DNA of 31,062 nucleotides from Candidatus Aenigmatarchaeota archaeon (GTDB lineage Archaea; Aenigmatarchaeota; Aenigmatarchaeia; Aenigmatarchaeales; JACQIB01), in NCBI GenBank assembly GCA_046760225.1, contig JBHIDR010000005.1, forward strand, positions 1 to 31,062, read 5' to 3'. Positions 1 through 29,598 of this stretch are shown here, piece by piece (within the stretch, counting starts at the first letter, position 1; every line of letters begins with the position of its first letter). The position numbers and the translations under genes are program-made. The notes beneath the pieces were generated by a model, which worked only from the letters and a program-made list of their open reading frames with translations, had not been told where the DNA came from and ran no database searches.

Positions 1-309
1 AGATGTCCATGTGACGCTGCTATTTGCCAACTTTATGCTGTCCCAGCCGTCTGTAAATTCTGTTCCTGTAGGTGCATAGCAGCTTATGTTGCTGTTGTAA
101 ACGTCTCCAGCGCCATTGGCATCATTTACTATAGCTGAAACCCAGAAGCTTGTAGCTGGATTTACTGTTGAACTCTGGAAGCTTATTGATTCAACTGTAG
201 GTGCAACATTGCTAGGTGTTCCTTGAGTTGTTACATCCGTTGCTATGGCTATACCTGATATCAGGAGAAGGCCTGATATTATTGTTACTATTATTCTTTT
301 ATTCATCAT
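1..309 (-). CDS. Secreted/cell-surface protein, N-terminal part only (runs off the left edge)
   Basis: Manual translation MMNKRIIVTIISGLLLISGIAIATDVTTQGTPSNVAPTVESISFQSSTVNPATSFWVSAIVNDANGAGDV...; Sec-type signal peptide, S/T/N-rich, NIS and NSS sequons, strong SD GAGGAAGGAGG; absent from the ORF track. Confidence 0.8.
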   Translation of the reverse strand, partial: MMNKRIIVTIISGLLLISGIAIATDVTTQGTPSNVAPTVESISFQSSTVNPATSFWVSAIVNDANGAGDVYNSNISCYAPTGTEFTDGWDSIKLANSSVTWTS

Positions 310-459: not shown

Positions 460-933
460 ATGAGAGTGATTGAAAGGGATGTGAAGGAACTCGTGAATGG
501 TACGAGATTCTACAACGGCAATCTAGATAATGTGGTCGATGTGAGGGTTTTAAGGTCATTGAGCAACTCAATACTGGGGACACAGACCAGGGGCGAAGAA
601 ACACTGTATTTCTGCGGCAAGCTCATAGGAAGCGAGTTTGGCAGGAATTTTAAAGCAAAGAATGTTGATGATGCTATAACGTCAGTCAATGAACTAATGA
701 AAAGGCTCAATCTGGGCCATGTCAAACGTGCTGTCAGAAAAGGCAGAAGGCTGCTGATTGATGTGAAGGACTGCCCGTTGTGCGATCCAGGGAAAGACAG
801 GAGATGCTATTTTTCTGCTGGTATTCTGGCTGGTATGCTTTCCCGGACTCTAAAAAGGAATGTTGTTGGAAAGGAAACAGACTGCAAGAACAAGAAAAGA
901 GATATCTGTACCTTTGAATTGAAGTTTATATAA
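460..933 (+). CDS. V4R (4-vinyl reductase) domain protein
   Basis: LYFCGKLIG helix, DCPLC, CYFSAGILAG, ETDCx7CTFEL C-terminal Zn motif. Confidence 0.85.
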   Translation: MRVIERDVKELVNGTRFYNGNLDNVVDVRVLRSLSNSILGTQTRGEETLYFCGKLIGSEFGRNFKAKNVDDAITSVNELMKRLNLGHVKRAVRKGRRLLIDVKDCPLCDPGKDRRCYFSAGILAGMLSRTLKRNVVGKETDCKNKKRDICTFELKFI

Positions 934-1018
934 AATTACCACTTTATTATCCTTAATTTGCCCAAAAATCAGATTTATATATTATTGTATAGATATTTGT
1001 TTAAAAGGACGATTTGGT

Positions 1019-1339
1019 ATGAAAAGGGTACACAAGGGTCTGAGGGTTCTTGGCCTGACTGACCTTGAGGCAAGAGTCTATCTGAAACTCCTGGAGATGA
1101 AAAGGGCAAGGGTTACAAGGCTCGCAAAGGAGGTCAAGGTCACGCGTACGCAGCTTTATCCTCTTCTTGAAAAGATGGTAGAGAAAGGTTATGTGAAAAG
1201 GGTAGAAAAGAGCCCTGCAGTATATGCTGTTGTGGAGCCTGAAAAAATGGAAAGGATGTTGCAGAAATGGCTTAAGGAGCAGACCAAGCTCGTGAAGGAA
1301 GTGCAGAATTTCCTTAAGAAGTCAAAGAAAGGTAAATGA
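1019..1339 (+). CDS. TrmB-family wHTH transcriptional regulator, short form (DNA-binding domain plus coiled helix)
   Basis: LGLTDLEARVYLKLL, RTQLYPLLEKMVEKGYV, PAVYAVVEPE. Confidence 0.9.
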   Translation: MKRVHKGLRVLGLTDLEARVYLKLLEMKRARVTRLAKEVKVTRTQLYPLLEKMVEKGYVKRVEKSPAVYAVVEPEKMERMLQKWLKEQTKLVKEVQNFLKKSKKGK

Positions 1340-1389
1340 TTACTTCTTTTACGGCCCATCGTTACGTATTTATTCTTTTCTGTTCATGT

Positions 1390-1414
1390 TATTGTAATAT
1401 AATGTATTACAATA
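1390..1414. promoter_or_regulatory. Perfect inverted repeat, candidate operator upstream of the second TrmB gene
   Basis: tattgtaata-taatg-tattacaata (10-bp arms, 5-bp spacer) directly before a TTTAAG TATA-like box. Confidence 0.75.
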
Positions 1415-1461
1415 TTTAAGAATGTTGAATGTTATATTATAAGATATCAGGGGGTAAAGAC

Positions 1462-1785
1462 ATGAAAAAGCAAAGGCGTGTTAAAAGGGTCTTACGGGTG
1501 GTAGGACTAACGAATCTTGAAGCAGATGTATGTGTCAAGCTTCTTGAGATGAAACAGACCAGAGTAACGAAACTTGCCCGAAAAACAGGTGTCACAAGAA
1601 CCCAGCTCTATCCTCTTCTGGAGAAATTACTTGAGAAGGGCTTTGTAAAACGGATAGAAGATAGACCAACGATATATTCTGTTGTAGAACCTGAGAAGAT
1701 AGCAGCAATTCTGGAAAGGTGGATAAAAGAGCAAACCGCGCTAATCAGGGAAGCACAAAAGGTACTCAAAAAGATAAAGAGGTGA
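1462..1785 (+). CDS. TrmB-family wHTH regulator, short form, paralog of 1019..1339
   Basis: VGLTNLEADVCVKLL, VTRTQLYPLLEKLLEKGFV, PTIYSVVEPE; start placed at ATG 1462 (SD GGGGGT) rather than 1429. Confidence 0.9.
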   Translation: MKKQRRVKRVLRVVGLTNLEADVCVKLLEMKQTRVTKLARKTGVTRTQLYPLLEKLLEKGFVKRIEDRPTIYSVVEPEKIAAILERWIKEQTALIREAQKVLKKIKR

Positions 1786-2247
1786 TTATTTCCTTCTCAC
1801 AGCAAATACGCACGTATTCCTTTTGCTGTTTTTGAATCTCACGAACTTGCCAAAATAGTTCTTCCCACTTATTTCAGTAGCCATTCCTGCTATTATACCA
1901 AGCATAAAATAACAGTTTTTACTATTTCTTCTTTTCTTGTAGAAAACACAGTCATCAATATCAAGCGTTATCATGTCCTTTTTGACCCTTATTCCAGCTA
2001 TGTTACCTATGTTCAACTTTCTAAGAGTATATTTTAGTATGTCTATAATATTGTTCTTGGGATGTTTCTTGATATGGTTACTTACTATTCTTTCTCCTAT
2101 GAACTTTCCTGAGAAATATATTATCTCATGGCCATTGGCCTGTGTTTCGAGTATTGAGTCATTGAGCATATGGAGCAGGGATATGTCTATCTTTTTGTAA
2201 CCTTTGCTGAAAAGAGACCTTATGCTGTCATCTATATCGTAGGCCAT
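1786..2247 (-). CDS. V4R domain protein, paralog of 460..933
   Basis: NDSILETQANGHEIIYFSGKFIG aligns with SNSILGTQTRGEETLYFCGKLIG; CYFMLGIIAG; C-terminal CVF. Confidence 0.8.
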   Translation of the reverse strand: MAYDIDDSIRSLFSKGYKKIDISLLHMLNDSILETQANGHEIIYFSGKFIGERIVSNHIKKHPKNNIIDILKYTLRKLNIGNIAGIRVKKDMITLDIDDCVFYKKRRNSKNCYFMLGIIAGMATEISGKNYFGKFVRFKNSKRNTCVFAVRRK

Positions 2248-2318: not shown

Positions 2319-2349
2319 TAAAAAAAGAAAAAGGGTGACAAAGTCACCC
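2319..2349 (-). terminator. Hairpin plus T-tract terminator of the beta-propeller gene
   Basis: gggtgac-aaa-gtcaccc at 2333-2349 overlapping the stop codon, followed on the minus strand by TTTTTCTTTTTTTT. Confidence 0.65.
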
Positions 2350-3831
2350 AATTACATTAACTATATCACTGCCTTCGAATGGTGTTTCTCCAACCATCCC
2401 TGTTATTGTTATTTCCACTGCTTCTCCTGTGTCCAGTATGCCTATGACCTCTTTTCTGTCGAATTTCACCATCAGGTCCTTGATTCCATCGCCATCATGG
2501 TCTCCTATGTTCGTAGGACCACTTGAGGGAACTGTGCCTTCCAGCAAAAGGGACGATGTGTCTAACCAGGAAGGATCATAGCCATCAACTTCTATGTATG
2601 CTGTAATCCATTTCCCTTTGCTCTTCTTGTTTATTGTATCCGGGTCTATATCTATTGTTATGTCTGTTACATTGTCCACATGCCCGAATACAAATACGCT
2701 AGTATTTGTTCCTACAAACAGCCTGTCATTTTCCACCATTGGGGACGATTCACTCGTATAGCCTGTCTCGTAGTCCCAGATAAGGGATCCTGTGCTTTCG
2801 CTCAGCACATAGACATGGCCGTCAACTGAGTTCACTATCACTTTTCCATCTGATATGGCTGGTGATGACTTCACATCATCTGCTGTTATATAACTCCATA
2901 ACAAATCGCCTGTTGTTGAATTAAATGCATAGACTTTGTTGTCATTGGAGCCTATATAGAGTACTCCTGTATTCCTGTTGACAGCAGGTGAGGATATAAC
3001 TACGTCACCTGTTGTATAGTTCCATAGCAGGTTACCATTGTTTCTGTTCAATGCATATAGCTGCCCATCTAATGAGCCAACAAATACCGTTTCGATATTT
3101 TCTCTGACCATGGGAGTTGATATTATATCTCCGTTTGTTTCAAAGTCCCACAAAGGCGCTCCTGTTGATGAATTGAGTGCATAGAGCTTCCTGTCTGAAG
3201 AGCCGACAAATACCATTCCGCTTTCATGTATAACTGGGGATGATATCACAGCCCCGCCTGTTGTAAAGCTCCATTCAAGTGTGCCGCTTGAACTCAAGGC
3301 GTATACATTTCCGTCACCAGATCCGAAATATACCATACCGCTTCCTGGTATTGTTGCTGGTGATGACTCAACATCGCCTCCTGTAGTATAGCTCCATAGT
3401 ATGTTCCCATCGAGTTTGTTTAATGCGTACAGCTTGTTTCCAGAACCTACGTACAGATGCCCTGTGCTGTTGTCCAAGAGTGGTGTAGACTTTGTACCAA
3501 TTCCAAGGTATTGCGCCCATAGCAAATCCCGTGTTATGTCGTCGAACGCATATATGTAGCCGTCATTCGAAGCCACGAACAGGGTCCCGTATGTGTGCTC
3601 GATATCTGTGTCATATATGGGAGCTGAAAAGTCCACTCCAACGTCATACTCCCACATGAGCTGCGCAGTCTCTGGTATATCGCACGTTGCGAATCCGCTA
3701 CGATGCCAGTTGTGCTGGAACATAGCCCATGTTCCACCCCCCTCACACGCAAATACTATCCCTGAACCGACTAAAACGAAAGAAATTGTCAGTACAGAGA
3801 ATATAGCCAGTAGATATTTGTTTTTTAACAT
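2344..3831 (-). CDS. Secreted PQQ-like (BamB-type) beta-propeller repeat protein
   Basis: Signal peptide, WAMFQHNWHRSG, about 8 repeats of SSP...VYxGSxDGxVYAL...GxLLW; C-terminal domain with a DHDGDG Ca-binding-like motif. Confidence 0.9.
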   Translation of the reverse strand: MLKNKYLLAIFSVLTISFVLVGSGIVFACEGGGTWAMFQHNWHRSGFATCDIPETAQLMWEYDVGVDFSAPIYDTDIEHTYGTLFVASNDGYIYAFDDITRDLLWAQYLGIGTKSTPLLDNSTGHLYVGSGNKLYALNKLDGNILWSYTTGGDVESSPATIPGSGMVYFGSGDGNVYALSSSGTLEWSFTTGGAVISSPVIHESGMVFVGSSDRKLYALNSSTGAPLWDFETNGDIISTPMVRENIETVFVGSLDGQLYALNRNNGNLLWNYTTGDVVISSPAVNRNTGVLYIGSNDNKVYAFNSTTGDLLWSYITADDVKSSPAISDGKVIVNSVDGHVYVLSESTGSLIWDYETGYTSESSPMVENDRLFVGTNTSVFVFGHVDNVTDITIDIDPDTINKKSKGKWITAYIEVDGYDPSWLDTSSLLLEGTVPSSGPTNIGDHDGDGIKDLMVKFDRKEVIGILDTGEAVEITITGMVGETPFEGSDIVNVIG

Positions 3832-3928
3832 AAACAATAGATGGTCGATATCAATCCTTAAACATGTTTGGAAGCTTTTATTTAGAAAATGTCCAAACTT
3901 TTAAATTGATATTTTCATAATTTATAAT

Positions 3929-5149
3929 ATGGTTCTTAACAGATATGATAATAAGCTCTTGGAATTCATGTACCTCTTAACGAAGAAGCAGAAACACATG
4001 AATTCAATAGAAATAGCGAGATACCTCTCCTCTCACGGCAAGAAGATAACTGACAGAACCATCAGAAGGTGGTTTCATTATCTCCATAAGTATCATTTCG
4101 ATTATTTTCCGTATCCGAAATATGGGACACTGGGCTTAGTTCCTATATTTACATTGGTGGAATTCAATGAAAAATTGTTAGAAGTATTGCCTTATAGGCT
4201 ATCAATTATATACGGTATTAACTTTCAAGACTTTGAAAGGTGCTTAATCAATACCCACTTAATACCGACTAACCATCTGAATGATTTTAAAGCATTATGC
4301 TCAGAGGCCTCGGAATATGGAATTTTTAAGAAATATTTTATTTTCGATTCAGCTGTCGCCTTTTTTTCACCGTTTCATAAGATATTCAAAAGGGATGGTC
4401 TTGTTGAATTTCCAGAAAATTATGACATCGACAATTCTTATTTTACAGGACTGTTAAGAAATTGTCTTCAAAGTGATAAAAGTAATAGGTTAGAGAAAGA
4501 AGTAAAAGAGAATCCTCTAATAATTCCTATAATCCTTGAATATTTCAGGGAACATAGGTCATCACACGGGGTCTGGAACTCATTTAGAAGAAAATTAGGA
4601 GACGGGGTCTGGGGATATGTGAAGGATCCTAAGATCAGGAGATTAAAGAAAAAAGGTAGTGGAATAAGACTAATACAAAAAACCATGAAGGAGCTTCATG
4701 ACAATTTCCATGAATTCTTCCAACAAATAAGAGTAGTATATTATCCCTTCTATGCTCATGAAAACAACATATTTTACATGTTCTTGAAATTAAAAAGAAA
4801 AAACGACATAATACCGCTTTCAGAAGCTCTTTCGAAGCATTCTGTTTCAATTGTGGTATATCCTCCCATGAATCCAAAAAGTAAAGAGATAGCTTATTAT
4901 ATTCTCACCAATAAGAAAGAGACCTTGAACATAATAAGCAACTTAATCCACCCATATATTGACAAATCATATGATAACAAGATAATTTACGAGGATTTCG
5001 AAGCTTCAATGAAGTATAGGGGCCCAAAATCATATCATTGGCGCAAATACTATCTTAGGTCTAATTATCACAGGCTATTTAATCCGAAAACTGTGACATG
5101 GAAATTTGATATAGAAAAATACAAGAAGAGATTGTACAAGCTGAAATAG
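3929..5149 (+). CDS. Putative transcriptional regulator with N-terminal wHTH (Lrp-like tandem architecture), AT-rich
   Basis: SIEIARYL...ITDRTIRRWFHYL HTH followed by PKYGTLGLVPIF; divergent from the propeller gene. Confidence 0.6.
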   Translation: MVLNRYDNKLLEFMYLLTKKQKHMNSIEIARYLSSHGKKITDRTIRRWFHYLHKYHFDYFPYPKYGTLGLVPIFTLVEFNEKLLEVLPYRLSIIYGINFQDFERCLINTHLIPTNHLNDFKALCSEASEYGIFKKYFIFDSAVAFFSPFHKIFKRDGLVEFPENYDIDNSYFTGLLRNCLQSDKSNRLEKEVKENPLIIPIILEYFREHRSSHGVWNSFRRKLGDGVWGYVKDPKIRRLKKKGSGIRLIQKTMKELHDNFHEFFQQIRVVYYPFYAHENNIFYMFLKLKRKNDIIPLSEALSKHSVSIVVYPPMNPKSKEIAYYILTNKKETLNIISNLIHPYIDKSYDNKIIYEDFEASMKYRGPKSYHWRKYYLRSNYHRLFNPKTVTWKFDIEKYKKRLYKLK

Positions 5150-5154
5150 CATGC

Positions 5155-5424
5155 TTATTCTTTCTTGGCAAACTTCTTCATGTAGATTATGACCACAAGG
5201 AGTATGATCATGAGTATGAGAAGTATCCATGATGTCATCAGGGGGACCTCACCAGGCTCTATTTCTTCAAGGCGGTGCACTTCTTCCATGGTAGGTCCTG
5301 AGAGGAGGTAGCCTGTGATTCCTGGTGCTACAAGTGTCACTAGAATACCATACACTAGGACAGCCACCAGGCATGCTTCAAGGAATATTGTTAAGGTTTC
5401 TGCGCTCCTTTTAAATTGTAACAT
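5155..5424 (-). CDS. Small two-TM membrane protein
   Basis: Two hydrophobic segments flanking an acidic loop; basic C-tail KKFAKKE. Confidence 0.7.
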   Translation of the reverse strand: MLQFKRSAETLTIFLEACLVAVLVYGILVTLVAPGITGYLLSGPTMEEVHRLEEIEPGEVPLMTSWILLILMIILLVVIIYMKKFAKKE

Positions 5425-5436
5425 ACAATATTACAA
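5416..5436. promoter_or_regulatory. Candidate operator site (TTGTAATA-N5-TATTACAA family)
   Basis: ttgtaaca-tacaa-tattacaa overlapping the start codon of 5155..5424, 20 bp downstream of the minus-strand TTTAAGTA start. Confidence 0.7.
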
Positions 5437-20672: not shown

Positions 20673-21113
20673 TCATTCTTCGATAAAAATCAGTTCTCCC
20701 TCATTTCTTGGGCATACTTTCCTGACATCCCCGTTCTTATAGCTTATCTCCTTCTCTATGCACCATTGTTTGTAGCATTTTCTGCTAATTGGGCATAAAT
20801 CAGAGGTGCCGTAATATGGGGACTTTAATGACCTGTGTATCTTCTTTATGCCTCTCTCCAGCCCCTTTTTGCTAAATGTTGACTGCAGACGCTGCTGAAC
20901 AGAGCGGTGCATTTTTTCTGGAAAATCCAGCCTGTTAAAGATTGCATTAGTTGTATAGAAATGGTCCTTGTTCTTGTCAAGGAGCTCTCTCTTGATAAAG
21001 CTTATTGCCTCTTCTATGTCATCATCACTGTACCACGTCTTGTCATCTATGATAAATTTCTTCTTTGTGCGCTCAACAGCTTCCTTTATTTTATTTCCCA
21101 AGCTTTCTTGCAT
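20673..21113 (-). CDS. Hypothetical protein with C-terminal Cys cluster
   Basis: CPISRKCYKQWC...VCP; fills the gap between L35Ae and the KaiC-like gene. Confidence 0.6.
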   Translation of the reverse strand: MQESLGNKIKEAVERTKKKFIIDDKTWYSDDDIEEAISFIKRELLDKNKDHFYTTNAIFNRLDFPEKMHRSVQQRLQSTFSKKGLERGIKKIHRSLKSPYYGTSDLCPISRKCYKQWCIEKEISYKNGDVRKVCPRNEGELIFIEE

Positions 21114-21163
21114 GCAAAAACATTACGCATAAACTTTTAAATATTCAAAGGTTAATTGTGCTT

Positions 21164-21916
21164 ATGGCAAGGAAAATGAAAAAGAAAGTTGCAAAAAGGG
21201 GGGTAAAAAAGAAGACCAGAAAGAAACGTTCTGTTGAAAGAATTCCTACTGGAATAAAGGGCCTTGACAGGTTCATGAAGGGCGGTTTGATAAAGGGCAC
21301 AACAACGCTCCTTACTGGTTCCACAGGAACAGGCAAGACCATATTCTGCACCCAGTTCATTCTCGAGGGGCTCAGGAAAAAGGAGAAGTGCCTTTTCATC
21401 ACAATGGAAGAAAGAGTGGAAGACATAATAAATGATGTCAAGGAGTTCAAATGGGACCTCCGGAAGCATATGGACTCTGGACTGCTCATACTGGAGTACA
21501 GGGACCCCTTCCAGCTTGCAAACCTTGCTGAAAAGCTAGCAGAGAGGATAAAGAAGAACAAGATACAGAGGGTGGTGATTGATTCCACTTCTCTCTTCGG
21601 CCTGTATTTCAAGGACCCGTTTGATGTGAGGAAACAGCTCTTCAACCTGATGGCAAAGCTCAAGTCATCAGGAGCAACAACCATTCTCACATCTGAGATG
21701 CCTGAAGCAGACCACATGCTATCGCGCTTCGGCGTAGAGGAATACATCACTGACAACGTAATAATACTGAACTACCTGGGAGTCGGAGGAGTCTATGGAA
21801 GGTCGTTGTCAATAAGGAAGATGAGAAGGACTGACCATGGAAAGGATGTCTATCCGCTGAAGATAGGAAAGAGGGGAATAGAGATCAGGGGAGCTGAAAG
21901 AGGCATCAAGCTTTAG
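21164..21916 (+). CDS. Single-domain KaiC/RAD55-like ATPase with Lys-rich N-tail
   Basis: RIPTGIKGLD, GSTGTGKT, FITMEE, VVIDS, SRFGVEEYITD, RKMRRTDH; start at ATG 21164. Confidence 0.92.
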   Translation: MARKMKKKVAKRGVKKKTRKKRSVERIPTGIKGLDRFMKGGLIKGTTTLLTGSTGTGKTIFCTQFILEGLRKKEKCLFITMEERVEDIINDVKEFKWDLRKHMDSGLLILEYRDPFQLANLAEKLAERIKKNKIQRVVIDSTSLFGLYFKDPFDVRKQLFNLMAKLKSSGATTILTSEMPEADHMLSRFGVEEYITDNVIILNYLGVGGVYGRSLSIRKMRRTDHGKDVYPLKIGKRGIEIRGAERGIKL

Positions 21917-22448
21917 AAACATCAAAAGCACAATACTTGTCCCCACAGGCAATGCACTTGCTTTCTACGACCTTGACCTTGGAGCCGAAAATAACAGTGA
22001 AGTGCTCCTTTATTAGGCCTTTCAACCAGAAATCTATTGGCTTCTTGCTGTTGTTCTTGTGGAGCATCAGCCATTTGGTTGGTAAGGTGCTTTCCCTTAC
22101 AATGACCTGCGCTGACCTGTTTTTCATGCTCATCCTGCTCACCTCTATCATGCCCCATCCTGTACTGTTGAGTATCTTTGTTGTGAAGTCCATTATCTTG
22201 CTCTTGGACAATTCAGAAAAGTTGTAGCGCTTGAGGTATCTTTTTGCTGCAGCCTCAACCTGGTACCTGCCCATCTCCTCCAACAATTTCCCTGTCTTTT
22301 TTCTGCCGAGCTTCTTAAGAAGCACATCATACATATGGACAACTACGCCCGACGGAAAGAGCAGCACGTATTCTCCAAGCATCCTGATGTGCCCTTCCTC
22401 AAAGGTGAACTGGCCTGTCTGCATCAGTTTTGTCAAAAACCTGCTCAT
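21906..22448 (-). CDS. V4R (XylR_N/4VR) domain protein
   Basis: EEGHIRMLGE, TGWGMIE, ESKCIACGDKYCAFDV. Confidence 0.85.
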   Translation of the reverse strand: MSRFLTKLMQTGQFTFEEGHIRMLGEYVLLFPSGVVVHMYDVLLKKLGRKKTGKLLEEMGRYQVEAAAKRYLKRYNFSELSKSKIMDFTTKILNSTGWGMIEVSRMSMKNRSAQVIVRESTLPTKWLMLHKNNSKKPIDFWLKGLIKEHFTVIFGSKVKVVESKCIACGDKYCAFDVSKA

Positions 22449-22450
22449 TA

Positions 22451-23815
22451 TCAGAACTTGTTTTTCTTAGTAATTATTCTTTTCGGTTTGCCCTTTTGCT
22501 TGTAAATATCGAGCCTGCCTTCGGGCACTGTCTCAACATAGATGTCAGCCACCCTGCTGGGCCCTGTTGCAACTATGTTAAGTGTGAAATGGTTGTGAAC
22601 AGAGTCGCATATCCACTTAACAAGGTCCTTGTGGGTCTTTCCGCGAGTCTCTACCCTGAGTTTTATCTTGTGCAGGCTCTCGCTGGAATCATATTCCTTT
22701 ATTACCTCGTATTCCCCTGTGAGATAATCAGTAAACTCGGGTCTGAGCATCACAGCCTCAAGCTCATCAAGCCCTATGCGCGTGTAACCTACTTCAAGCT
22801 CTCCAAGCTCTCCTGCGCGAATTGGCGGAGATATTTTGTGCAATATGCTCCCGCACCCACACTCGTCCCCGAGCATCTTGAACTTGTCGCCATGTTGGTA
22901 ATTAATCAGAACCATTCCACAGTATGTTCCTTCAGGAACAAGCGTTGTTATCACATCCCATCCGGTCTCTCCTTCGTCCTTTAGCTCCTTTGTTTCAGGG
23001 TCAATCGCCCTTAACCACAGATAATCCTCTTTAACATGGTGAAGCCCTTCCTGCATATCACATTCAGTTGCCATGAGGTCACCTTCTGTGCTTGCATAAT
23101 TGTTGCGCACTTCAGCGTTCCATCTCTTGCTTATGAATTCCTTCATTTCCTTGCTCAGGGGTTCGCTAACAGTCAGTATTCGTTCTATTGATGTCTCAGT
23201 CGGATCAGTTCCAGCCAGCTCAAACCTCCGGGCAAGACGCGCGACACTGGATGGGGATCCGAAGAGAACAGTTGGCTTATGGTACTCCACTAGCTCGGTC
23301 TTTGGAGGATTGTCGCCAATTCCGGCAGTCAGTACATGAGCAAGCTTCTCAAAACCGCGCGTTGCGGCAACCCCTGATGTGCCCATGCCATAAGGCAGTA
23401 CTATCAATACGGTGTCATCCTCTTTCACTCCTGCAATTTCGTACGCTCTTCTGAGCTCTATTTTTGAAATATCAATGTCATCATGTGACCTCAAGAAAAC
23501 CTTGGAAGTGCCCTGCGTTCCAGAAGTGTAATTCGAAATTGCCCACTGGTCCTTGGGTGCTGAAAAAAATCTGTAGTCATCAGAATTAGGAGGTTGGTTG
23601 TCAACTATATCCTTCTTTGTCACTATGGGCAACTTCTTCAGCAAATCTTCAGGAGAGTCTATATCCTTTGGGTGCACATTGTGCTCACGAAAAAGATCAT
23701 GGTAGAAGGGTGAATTTTCAAATGCATACTGTGCTGTATAGCGTGCGCGCCTGCCTACAAGATGATCTAAGTCACAGCGTTCTGCATGACGTGTACTCGC
23801 TACGTACATGAACAC
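22451..23815 (-). CDS. Phenylacetate-CoA ligase (PaaK)-like adenylate-forming enzyme
   Basis: NSPFY, LKKLPIVTKKD, YTSGTQG P-loop, NYASTEG, YQHGD, C-terminal KGKPKRI. Confidence 0.85.
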   Translation of the reverse strand: MFMYVASTRHAERCDLDHLVGRRARYTAQYAFENSPFYHDLFREHNVHPKDIDSPEDLLKKLPIVTKKDIVDNQPPNSDDYRFFSAPKDQWAISNYTSGTQGTSKVFLRSHDDIDISKIELRRAYEIAGVKEDDTVLIVLPYGMGTSGVAATRGFEKLAHVLTAGIGDNPPKTELVEYHKPTVLFGSPSSVARLARRFELAGTDPTETSIERILTVSEPLSKEMKEFISKRWNAEVRNNYASTEGDLMATECDMQEGLHHVKEDYLWLRAIDPETKELKDEGETGWDVITTLVPEGTYCGMVLINYQHGDKFKMLGDECGCGSILHKISPPIRAGELGELEVGYTRIGLDELEAVMLRPEFTDYLTGEYEVIKEYDSSESLHKIKLRVETRGKTHKDLVKWICDSVHNHFTLNIVATGPSRVADIYVETVPEGRLDIYKQKGKPKRIITKKNKF

Positions 23816-28785: not shown

Positions 28786-29598
28786 TTATCTGCGCCTTTT
28801 CTTAGAAATCATCTTCTCAAGTGGTATTGCATGCTTCCATACAGAGAAGAAGTATCTCTTGAAAACATCAGCAATGATTTTGTTGCTGATTATCATACTT
28901 GAGATATCATACTCGCGATCCCCTCTTTTGCCGTATTTCTGTACAACATACACCTTTTTACTGTCAGTTATTATGGCCCTGAGGGTTATTCCTGGGCTGA
29001 AGCGCAGTTCAGCGCCCAATTTAAGTGCTTTTTTCGCACGCTGCAGAACATCAGCTTCCTTCTTGCTGAAGATTATCCTGTATTTTATTCCCCTCTTAAT
29101 CATGCGCTTGATTTCAGCTGCCTTCTTGTCAACCCATGAAAGATCGCCTGCAAAGGAGAGGAACTCCTCCTTTGTGGTGGACTCAAATTCCTTCCACACG
29201 GTATCAATGTTTACCTTCTGTTTCACCTGCGCCAGAACCTCCTCCCTTTCCTCAGCAACTGACTTTGGCATATGTTCAACTGCCTTCATAAACTGCGGCA
29301 CAATTTCCTGCAGGGATTTTATTCTTGCCTCCATCCTTTTCTTTTCGTCCTCCCTGAGTATGTCAAATATCTTTTTGGGATCAACCACCCTGAATGTCTG
29401 GGGCCTTGTTTTTGAAACAAATATGAGGCCTTTCGAAGCAAGAGATGACATTGTATCATAAACCCTTGGAAGCGGTATCCTTCCGAGGGATGATATCTTG
29501 TCCGCTGTTAGTGTCCCTCTCTTTATGAGAGTGACATAAGCCTTTGCTTCGTACTCTGTCAAGCCAAGATGCTTGAGCAATGCTTCAGCCTCTTCCAT
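28786..29598 (-). CDS. Full-length TrmB-family regulator (wHTH plus C-terminal effector domain)
   Basis: LGLTEYEAKAYVTL, IPLPRVYDTMSSLASKGL, RPQTFRVVDP, IITDSKKV. Confidence 0.93.
   Translation of the reverse strand: MEEAEALLKHLGLTEYEAKAYVTLIKRGTLTADKISSLGRIPLPRVYDTMSSLASKGLIFVSKTRPQTFRVVDPKKIFDILREDEKKRMEARIKSLQEIVPQFMKAVEHMPKSVAEEREEVLAQVKQKVNIDTVWKEFESTTKEEFLSFAGDLSWVDKKAAEIKRMIKRGIKYRIIFSKKEADVLQRAKKALKLGAELRFSPGITLRAIITDSKKVYVVQKYGKRGDREYDISSMIISNKIIADVFKRYFFSVWKHAIPLEKMISKKRRR

Follow-up and report, generated by a model that had tools for sequence, protein, structure and literature searches.

Near the left end of a contig from a Candidatus Aenigmatarchaeota archaeon (assembly GCA_046760225.1, contig JBHIDR010000005.1, positions 1 to 31,062; this whole stretch of 31,062 nucleotides (nt) is called the window), two genes for stand-alone V4R proteins flank two genes for short TrmB-type regulators. 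The locus raises the question of whether V4R and TrmB proteins encoded side by side work together and, if so, on which DNA and which genes. We find that it belongs to a real, conserved but rare regulatory module. Comparison across genomes makes it very probable that the clade of short TrmBs forms an operator-binding regulon for surface genes, with a palindrome of 21 base pairs (bp) as the operator, and the V4R proteins may provide the TrmBs with a separately encoded input.

Genes of the module

The source genome (G000; 851 kb in 83 contigs, 83% complete) encodes all four open reading frames (ORFs) that an initial annotation of the locus had claimed. V1 (460-933, + strand) is a stand-alone V4R protein of 157 amino acids (aa) that scores 37.6 with Pfam V4R (cut-off 31). 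T1 (1019-1339, + strand, 106 aa) and T2 (1462-1785, + strand, 107 aa) are paralogous single-domain TrmB-type winged-helix proteins, and V2 (1786-2247, - strand, 153 aa) is a divergent stand-alone V4R protein. The longest ORF for T2 begins at 1429 and has 118 aa; the likely start at 1462 matches database protein P0020. V2 gives no Pfam match at E of at most 0.01. Its identity to V1 is 30-33% (tblastn E 4e-19), and it aligns with the V4R part of the NCBIfam MsvR model (E 2.6e-5); by its homology to V1 it is most probably a V4R protein. Two paralogous V4R genes around two paralogous TrmB genes, and the convergence of T2 and V2 on abutting stop codons (TGA and TTA at 1785/1786), are as first described. 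The mirror arrangement proposed with them holds for the gene order, which is palindromic (V-T-T-V), and fails for the orientations, three genes pointing right and one left (V1> T1> T2> <V2). The interval annotated at first contains the four genes and misses the palindromic sites, three of which lie just left of its first position, 460.

T1 and T2 score 67 and 61.4 bits with the Pfam TrmB model (PF01978; cut-off 25.6), and, at only 106-107 aa, neither has a Pfam match to the effector domain PF11495, in agreement with the initial annotation. This lack is not unusual in itself, since effector-less TrmBs are common in Haloferax volcanii, where eight of 13 TrmB proteins are single-domain (available sections of PMC9426492). 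T1 and T2 are 61% identical, and the VTRTQLYPLLEK helix recorded earlier for both is indeed common to them; because they have one recognition helix, they should read the same site. They fall into well-supported sister clades (97/93 and 99/93), both retained in the window and two further lineages; those two lineages have a single V4R each. The nonsynonymous rate (dN) is below the synonymous rate (dS) for T1/T2 and for six of the seven V4R pairs with a finite dS. What consistently differs between T1 and T2 is the promoter: T2 has a site at the position of the transcription factor B (TFB) recognition element (BRE), and T1 has none.

A 21-bp palindrome in the promoters

A repeat search of the window recovered the 21-bp palindrome TTGTAA-N9-TTACAA. 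With at most two mismatches it occurs six times in the window against 1.72 expected, a number reached by none of 100 shuffles. With at most one mismatch there are five window sites, at 324, 346, 422, 1392 and 5416, and nine matches in the whole genome, five of them in the window's contig.

Two of these candidate operators lie in the promoter of a surface-protein gene that is divergent from V1 and whose 5' third occupies 1-306 (- strand). Its TATA-like box (373-379, - strand) stands 73 nt before the ATG; the operator at 324-344 (18.8 bits) falls between this box and the start codon, and that at 346-366 (14.4 bits) covers the predicted transcription start, all transcription starts here being deduced from the position of the TATA box. 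These operator-like sites support the earlier proposal that the module controls the divergent surface-protein gene. The third operator (422-442; 10.8 bits, the weakest of the five) is downstream of the TATA-like box TTTATAA of V1 (402-408, + strand), which is 58 nt before the ATG. The fourth (1392-1412, perfect arms, 21.4 bits) is directly upstream of the TATA-like box of T2, in the BRE position, and ends 2-3 nt before the TATA-like word; the site before T2 is kept in L046, L047, L048, L050 and L051. No operator was found at T1 or V2 in the window, and the V2 orthologs in L047, L048 and L049 have one site each, just after the TATA box. The fifth (5416-5436, perfect arms, 23.9 bits, the top score in the genome) lies at the 5' end of an ORF for a small two-helix membrane protein of no family (5155-5424, - strand), a probable target whose start codon is uncertain, the first ATG being inside the site. 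A histogram of TATA-to-operator distances peaks at -16, -11, +3 and +10, and it is only descriptive because the -16 and +10 peaks can both stem from a single AT-rich word, read once on each strand.

Conservation of the candidate operator

T1 and T2 belong to the short 'TRTQLYPLL' TrmB clade, of which an alignment of 29 members was used for the scans. The loci compared were 28 others with a short TrmB, three with a longer relative and 38 with an ordinary full-length TrmB. Not counted were L031 and L033, which duplicate L017 and L019, and L105, whose protein is identical to that of L032. The motif derived from the window, at one mismatch or fewer, has 47 matches in 23 of 28 short-TrmB loci (the window and 27 others), and the same arms at eight other spacings give 0-7 matches each in short-TrmB loci. 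It occurs in two of the three longer-relative loci, one of the 38 full-length TrmB loci and none of 12 other V4R loci.

Because the loci are related, they were collapsed to 14 lineages (about 80% TrmB identity). Local shuffles predict a site in 0.17 of the 14 other lineages; 12 have one (limits 800 nt upstream and 700 nt downstream), and in the two site-less lineages contig ends leave only 2 and 48 nt of upstream DNA. The extended consensus across loci is TTGTAAYAT-N3-ATRTTACAA. With a matrix built from the 34 sites outside G000, the five window sites and one at C13:18441 are the six best in the 851-kb genome, all of them intergenic; five sites in G000 reach 14 bits or more with this matrix, whereas 30 permuted matrices give 0.3 such sites on average and never more than 1. 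No gene other than the short TrmB is shared by all site-bearing lineages, and its recognition helix is nearly invariant across the clade, which is present in six of 301 genomes of the phylum. In a contig scan of the genomes, among the 600 matches listed, exact TGTAAYR-N5-YRTTACA matches are most numerous in the clade-positive genomes G035 (seven) and G000 (three), and clade-negative genomes never have more than two. These regularities argue strongly for a TrmB dimer as the protein that binds the palindrome.

V4R genes beside short TrmB genes

The initial annotation had named conserved linkage in relatives as a check on its idea that the V4Rs act on the TrmBs in trans. At 21 of the 28 other loci, and in 11 of the 14 lineages, the short TrmB gene has a V4R gene no more than 300 nt away; an ordinary full-length TrmB gene has such a neighbour at none of 38 loci, though the profile detected more distant V4Rs elsewhere. 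The linkage is conserved; the V>T>T><V layout of the window recurs at none of the 28 other loci, and the four-gene mirror is not supported as a meaningful unit. The layouts seen are V>T>, T><V, V>T><V and T>T><V, so that V4R neighbours occupy two positions relative to TrmB. The convergent position is occupied by two V4R subtypes that form no common group, with stop codons 0-15 nt apart, and the other neighbours of TrmB change freely while V4R stays adjacent. Pfam V4R matched all seven TrmB-neighbour proteins tested, three of them above the cut-off. A complex prediction for two copies each of T1 and V1 scored 0.00; the job was unlike those on which the tool is calibrated and its controls were not folded, so the score bears neither way.

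The best PDB match of the V4R family profile is the MJ1460 structure (2OSO/2OSD, E 2.9e-8), and the Atlas feature and structure neighbours of V1 are V4R, one structure neighbour carrying XylR_N, for which neither V1 nor V2 has a Pfam match. The best NCBIfam match of both proteins is MsvR (NF053755; 51.5 and 24 bits, cut-off 220). V1 keeps three V4R cysteines (C116, C142 and C150) and has a CxxC in addition; the three are complete in 19 of 22 aligned V4Rs, V1 included. The available sections of PMC2253512 present V4R domains as presumed binders of hydrophobic ligands that would signal in cis or in trans.

The V4R genes of one subtype, type B, are divergent from an HMGL-like gene (homocitrate/isopropylmalate synthase-like) wherever the flank is long enough (L062:5882-10157, L063:5883-10209, L065:5794-9759, L069:3337-6934, L017:2375-3306). 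At four type-B loci a UbiA prenyltransferase gene comes next, with a methyltransferase, radical-SAM or carotenoid-synthesis-family gene, and these neighbours possibly form a small-molecule pathway. The same four loci have a convergent gene for a 340-aa protein that belongs to no Pfam family; at three loci a weak site (12.8-13.7 bits) lies upstream of it. A comparison by hhalign did not tie this protein to V4R (3%).

Elsewhere in the window, at 21065-23815, a KaiC-like ATPase gene (+ strand) converges on a third V4R gene and a gene for an AMP-binding enzyme (- strand). The third V4R has a weak XylR_N match and does not group with V1 and V2, and this region has no operator. An ordinary full-length TrmB gene (28786-29598, 270 aa) is outside the short-TrmB clade. 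A separate conserved V4R/KaiC operon is found at L003-L010 and L013 (G037, G012, G008, G040, G030, G017, G010, G034 and G023); its order, read from the ORFs in L003-L006, is two small membrane proteins, a stand-alone V4R, a KaiC-like ATPase and a longer V4R-containing protein.

Relatives with fused domains

Among the 7999 candidates scored in a search for longer forms with the clade's helix, we found at least ten proteins with lengths of 376-391 aa and another with 306 aa. BcsD and YslB have a V4R-type fold. The 376-391-aa proteins are the sister group of the short TrmBs in the tree and carry the helix-turn-helix (HTH), a TrmB effector domain and a C-terminal V4R-like domain on one chain. That C-terminal domain has a BcsD/YslB fold match (E 0.002-0.008) and aligns with the V4R profile (hhalign 54%, E 1.3e-4), and P0189, the sole member of the sister clade that keeps the cysteines, matches Pfam V4R at E 0.018. 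Each of these signals is weak by itself, and they agree; the matches of a VIA search of the fusion model were all taken up by the HTH domain. In the 306-aa protein, P0180, the clade's HTH is instead fused to a MEDS/KaiC-like domain.

Predicted targets

The surface protein of the window is about 293 aa long and secreted, and it is a predicted target. Its gene continues on contig C53: residues 1-102 are 72% identical to a protein of L048, and G000:C53:1-3984 (L101) carries residues 100-293, four more secreted or membrane genes and then a KaiC-like ATPase gene. As in L048, the surface gene comes first in an operon for secreted proteins, and a KaiC-like ATPase gene comes last; between the window and C53 there is no exact end overlap of at least 10 nt. 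A full-length homolog has no Pfam or NCBIfam family, and the protein's neighbours in the ESM Atlas are unnamed archaeal clusters, the nearest named one being WxL at 0.77, which is a lead only. An AlphaFold model of a homolog had a mean predicted local distance difference test score of 37 and a weak beta-sandwich resemblance; because the model is weak and Foldseek gave no match at E of at most 0.001, the family is left unnamed.

The site at C13:18441 is 52 nt before the gene of a 2099-aa secreted protein with an MG2 domain. At other loci the divergent gene usually encodes a signal-peptide protein (in L054 one with beta-helix/LamG) and sometimes a small HTH protein, and in G035 distant sites are found before KaiC-like operons and before the gene of a pilin with a class III signal peptide. 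Near-identical V-T pairs (TrmB identity at least 95%) stand before three different divergent operons, in L053, in L055-L057 and in L058; at about 4400-5310 of each 10-kb locus the V4R-TrmB pair and two operators are followed by unrelated genes. Because such pairs precede different divergent operons, the V-T pair plus its two sites looks like a portable cassette.

To the right of the module, at 2344-5149, are genes for a secreted protein with a PQQ-type beta-propeller and, divergent from it, a 406-aa protein (ORF 3929-5149) whose N-terminus is HTH-like and which matches neither Pfam nor NCBIfam. Homologs of both keep this order beside the module at L047:6291-9087 (49% identity).

Comparison with known regulators

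A close parallel is MsvR of methanogens, which combines winged-helix DNA binding with a cysteine-bearing V4R and regulates itself through inverted-repeat boxes over BRE/TATA and the start site of divergent promoters; its boxes over BRE/TATA block the TATA-binding protein and TFB (available sections of PMC3729527). MsvR is a single chain with an ArsR-type HTH, the site TTCGTA-N4-TACGAA and oxidative-stress genes as targets (same sections of PMC3729527), whereas the module has separate HTH and V4R genes, a TrmB-type HTH, TTGTAA-N9-TTACAA, and surface and KaiC genes as predicted targets. The MsvR scores of V1 and V2 are far below the family cut-off, and HTH and V4R are separate ORFs.

T1 and T2 resemble TrmB/TrmBL1 (Tgr of Thermococcales and halobacterial TrmB) in having the DNA-binding domain plus coiled-coil helix (3QPH), and they differ in the absence of the sugar-binding effector domain. 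In the available sections of PMC4158304, TrmBL1/Tgr is autoregulated and the position of its palindromic operator relative to TATA sets the outcome, downstream sites repressing and upstream sites being able to activate; the sites given there (TACT-N3-AGTA, TATCAC-N5-GTGATA and TACT-N7-8-GAGTA) are unlike that of the module. No sugar-transport or glycolytic target of the kind in TrmB/TrmBL1 regulons was seen here, and T1 and T2 score far below the NCBIfam TrmB/TrmBL1 cut-offs.

AbfR1 affects biofilm and surface structures. Together with OxsR, MreA and the other Lrs14 proteins it resembles T1 and T2 in consisting of about 100-140 aa with only a winged HTH, a type widespread in archaea (parts of PMC9426492 and PMC4158304). 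OxsR senses through a conserved cysteine of its own (PMC9426492, in part), whereas T1 has no cysteine, as is the case for all but three of the 29 aligned members of the short-TrmB clade; a parallel between T2 Cys24 and OxsR C24 was abandoned, as only two of 29 rows have cysteine in that column. For MreA no motif was found according to the available part of PMC4158304. Lrs14 proteins have been described as nucleoid-associated, and T1 and T2 score 26.5 and 28.3 bits with NF040939 (cut-off 90). The parts of PMC9426492 and PMC4158304 on single-domain TrmBs (OxsR and MreA) mention no partner V4R gene. Stand-alone V4Rs (COG1719; MJ1460, 2OSO/2OSD) share the fold and the paired glycines, and the corresponding parts of PMC2253512 name no partner regulator or operator for them, where the module offers a candidate partner and site.

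By these family tests the module appears to be neither MsvR, a sugar-sensing TrmB, Lrs14 nor OxsR. Single-domain TrmBs, stand-alone V4Rs and proposed trans signalling are each known; the pairing, the operator and the surface/KaiC regulon did not turn up in the literature searched, and the neighbourhood tables of Makarova, Galperin and Koonin 2017, on KaiC hubs, or the supplements of other papers might list the pair.

A regulatory model and its alternatives

From the observed genes, sites, co-occurrence, linkage and fusion architecture we infer the binder, the sign of regulation and an action of V4R on TrmB. Dimers of T1/T2 would bind TTGTAA(Y)(R)-N5-(Y)(R)TTACAA. A site between the TATA box and the start codon, as at the surface gene, V1 and the V2 orthologs, would lead to repression, and one touching or preceding BRE/TATA, as at T2 and the giant secreted-protein gene on C13, would block or recruit TFB. 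Besides the module's own V4R and T2, the regulon would comprise surface and secreted proteins, a pilin and operons with KaiC-like ATPases, with T1 as the operator-independent and T2 as the feedback-controlled copy of one specificity. TrmB would control the production of the V4Rs, and these in turn would act back on TrmB activity, as the trans counterpart of what the sister clade has in cis and what MsvR has fused to an ArsR-type HTH; metal/thiol state and a small hydrophobic ligand are the candidate signals. If V4R inactivates TrmB, the result would be a double-negative loop that could be bistable, and if it is a co-repressor, a homeostatic one. Modulation of TrmB by a separately encoded V4R is a finely balanced proposition, and so is the overall reading of a TrmB regulon with V4R as separate input, working like a split MsvR.

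Several observations weigh against this reading. The extended pattern TGTAAYR-N5-YRTTACA was derived partly from sites in G000 and G035, and three clade-positive genomes (G025, G027 and G178) have no exact match, promoter DNA being cut off at a contig edge in G025 and G027. At least one extended match is present in 30 of 295 clade-negative genomes, about twice the frequency of a reversed-pattern control (16 of 301); 13 of the 17 clade-negative match loci examined lie inside long ORFs. High-scoring matches in G029 (L121:194) and G256 (L130:142 and 176, a tandem pair) look like true sites, in genomes where no clade TrmB was found. On the side of the V4Rs, the lineage of L060/L104 has a short TrmB without an adjacent V4R, and the V4R profile matches nothing in its genome G295 (73% complete); in L061 no V4R is present within the 407/330-nt flanks. 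The V4R of L054 has no cysteine at all, and V2, which lacks the cysteine corresponding to V1 position 142, and the V4R of L048 each miss one of the three. For the fused domain no single method gives more than a weak V4R assignment, the fusion proteins keep an ordinary effector domain too, and ten of 11 are without the cysteine motif. Because the fusions and the V4Rs of L054, V2 and L048 miss cysteines, no single metal/thiol mechanism fits all. Single-domain TrmBs can, moreover, sense signals themselves, as OxsR does. As a separate observation, the gene that follows the site in G029 is KaiC-like and resembles one found behind a G035 site.

Some of the same facts suit a different arrangement, in which the operator and TrmB regulon are real and the V4Rs are only targets or fellow travellers that signal to another partner, most likely the KaiC-like ATPases, TrmB itself being controlled by its level or by modification. 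V4R genes carry operators like any other target, KaiC-like operons are frequent among the targets, KaiC-like ATPases are proposed archaeal signalling hubs (available sections of PMC5847659), relatives have the separate V4R-KaiC-V4R operon, P0180 has a MEDS/KaiC-like domain in place of V4R, and the L060/L104 lineage does without a neighbouring V4R. Against it, V4R is directly beside TrmB in 11 of 14 lineages while the other neighbours vary, two V4R subtypes share the convergent position, and a V4R-like domain sits on the same chain in the sister clade; we hold this arrangement to be a possibility of some weight. That the palindrome is bound by another protein, the 406-aa product of ORF 3929-5149 or one of the small HTH proteins, with the TrmB-V4R pair as its target, is very improbable. 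Site 5416 is close to the 406-aa ORF, the module has a small HTH gene divergent from it in L058, L059, L060, L065 and L069, and there are the G029 and G256 sites; but among the loci compared the 406-aa protein has a homolog at one other only (L047), three small HTH queries match nothing in G000, which has six sites, and the short TrmB alone is shared by all site-bearing lineages.

Two further proposals concern how the pair would switch. The initial annotation had favoured homo- and heterodimers of T1 and T2, each tuned by its own V4R, as a source of two regulatory states. The retention of two well-supported clades under dN<dS in the window and two other lineages speaks for it, and heterodimers of OxsR with a paralog have been proposed, not shown (available sections of PMC9426492). 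The recognition helix is identical in T1 and T2, however, most lineages carry a single TrmB, only two of the 14 other lineages have two, each with one V4R, and the four-gene layout is neither repeated at the 28 other loci nor mirrored in orientation. This switch is not borne out and we regard it as unlikely. Somewhat less doubtful, and still speculative, is that V4R is a detachable anti-repressor: TrmB would repress the V4R gene, signal-loaded V4R would inactivate TrmB, and the cassette would flip between surface-on and surface-off states.

Implications for small-genome archaea

About the regulation of surface proteins in small-genome DPANN-type archaea, which need them for host contact, almost nothing is known. 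The module offers a candidate regulator together with a 21-bp site, a set of predicted targets and a possible sensor, and is small enough to be studied in E. coli with no culturing of the archaeon. If V4R acts on TrmB, stand-alone V4Rs, for which trans signalling has been proposed in general terms (PMC2253512, in part), would gain a named partner, and one archaeal HTH clade would be seen to swap its inputs among a fused effector, a V4R-like domain, a MEDS/KaiC-like domain and a detached V4R. Should the anti-repressor proposal be true, the cassette, placed before several adhesin, pilin and surface operons, could time host attachment in small symbiotic archaea, and the HMGL-like synthase, UbiA and methyltransferase/radical-SAM genes of type-B loci could make the V4R ligand, which would then be a self-produced signal.

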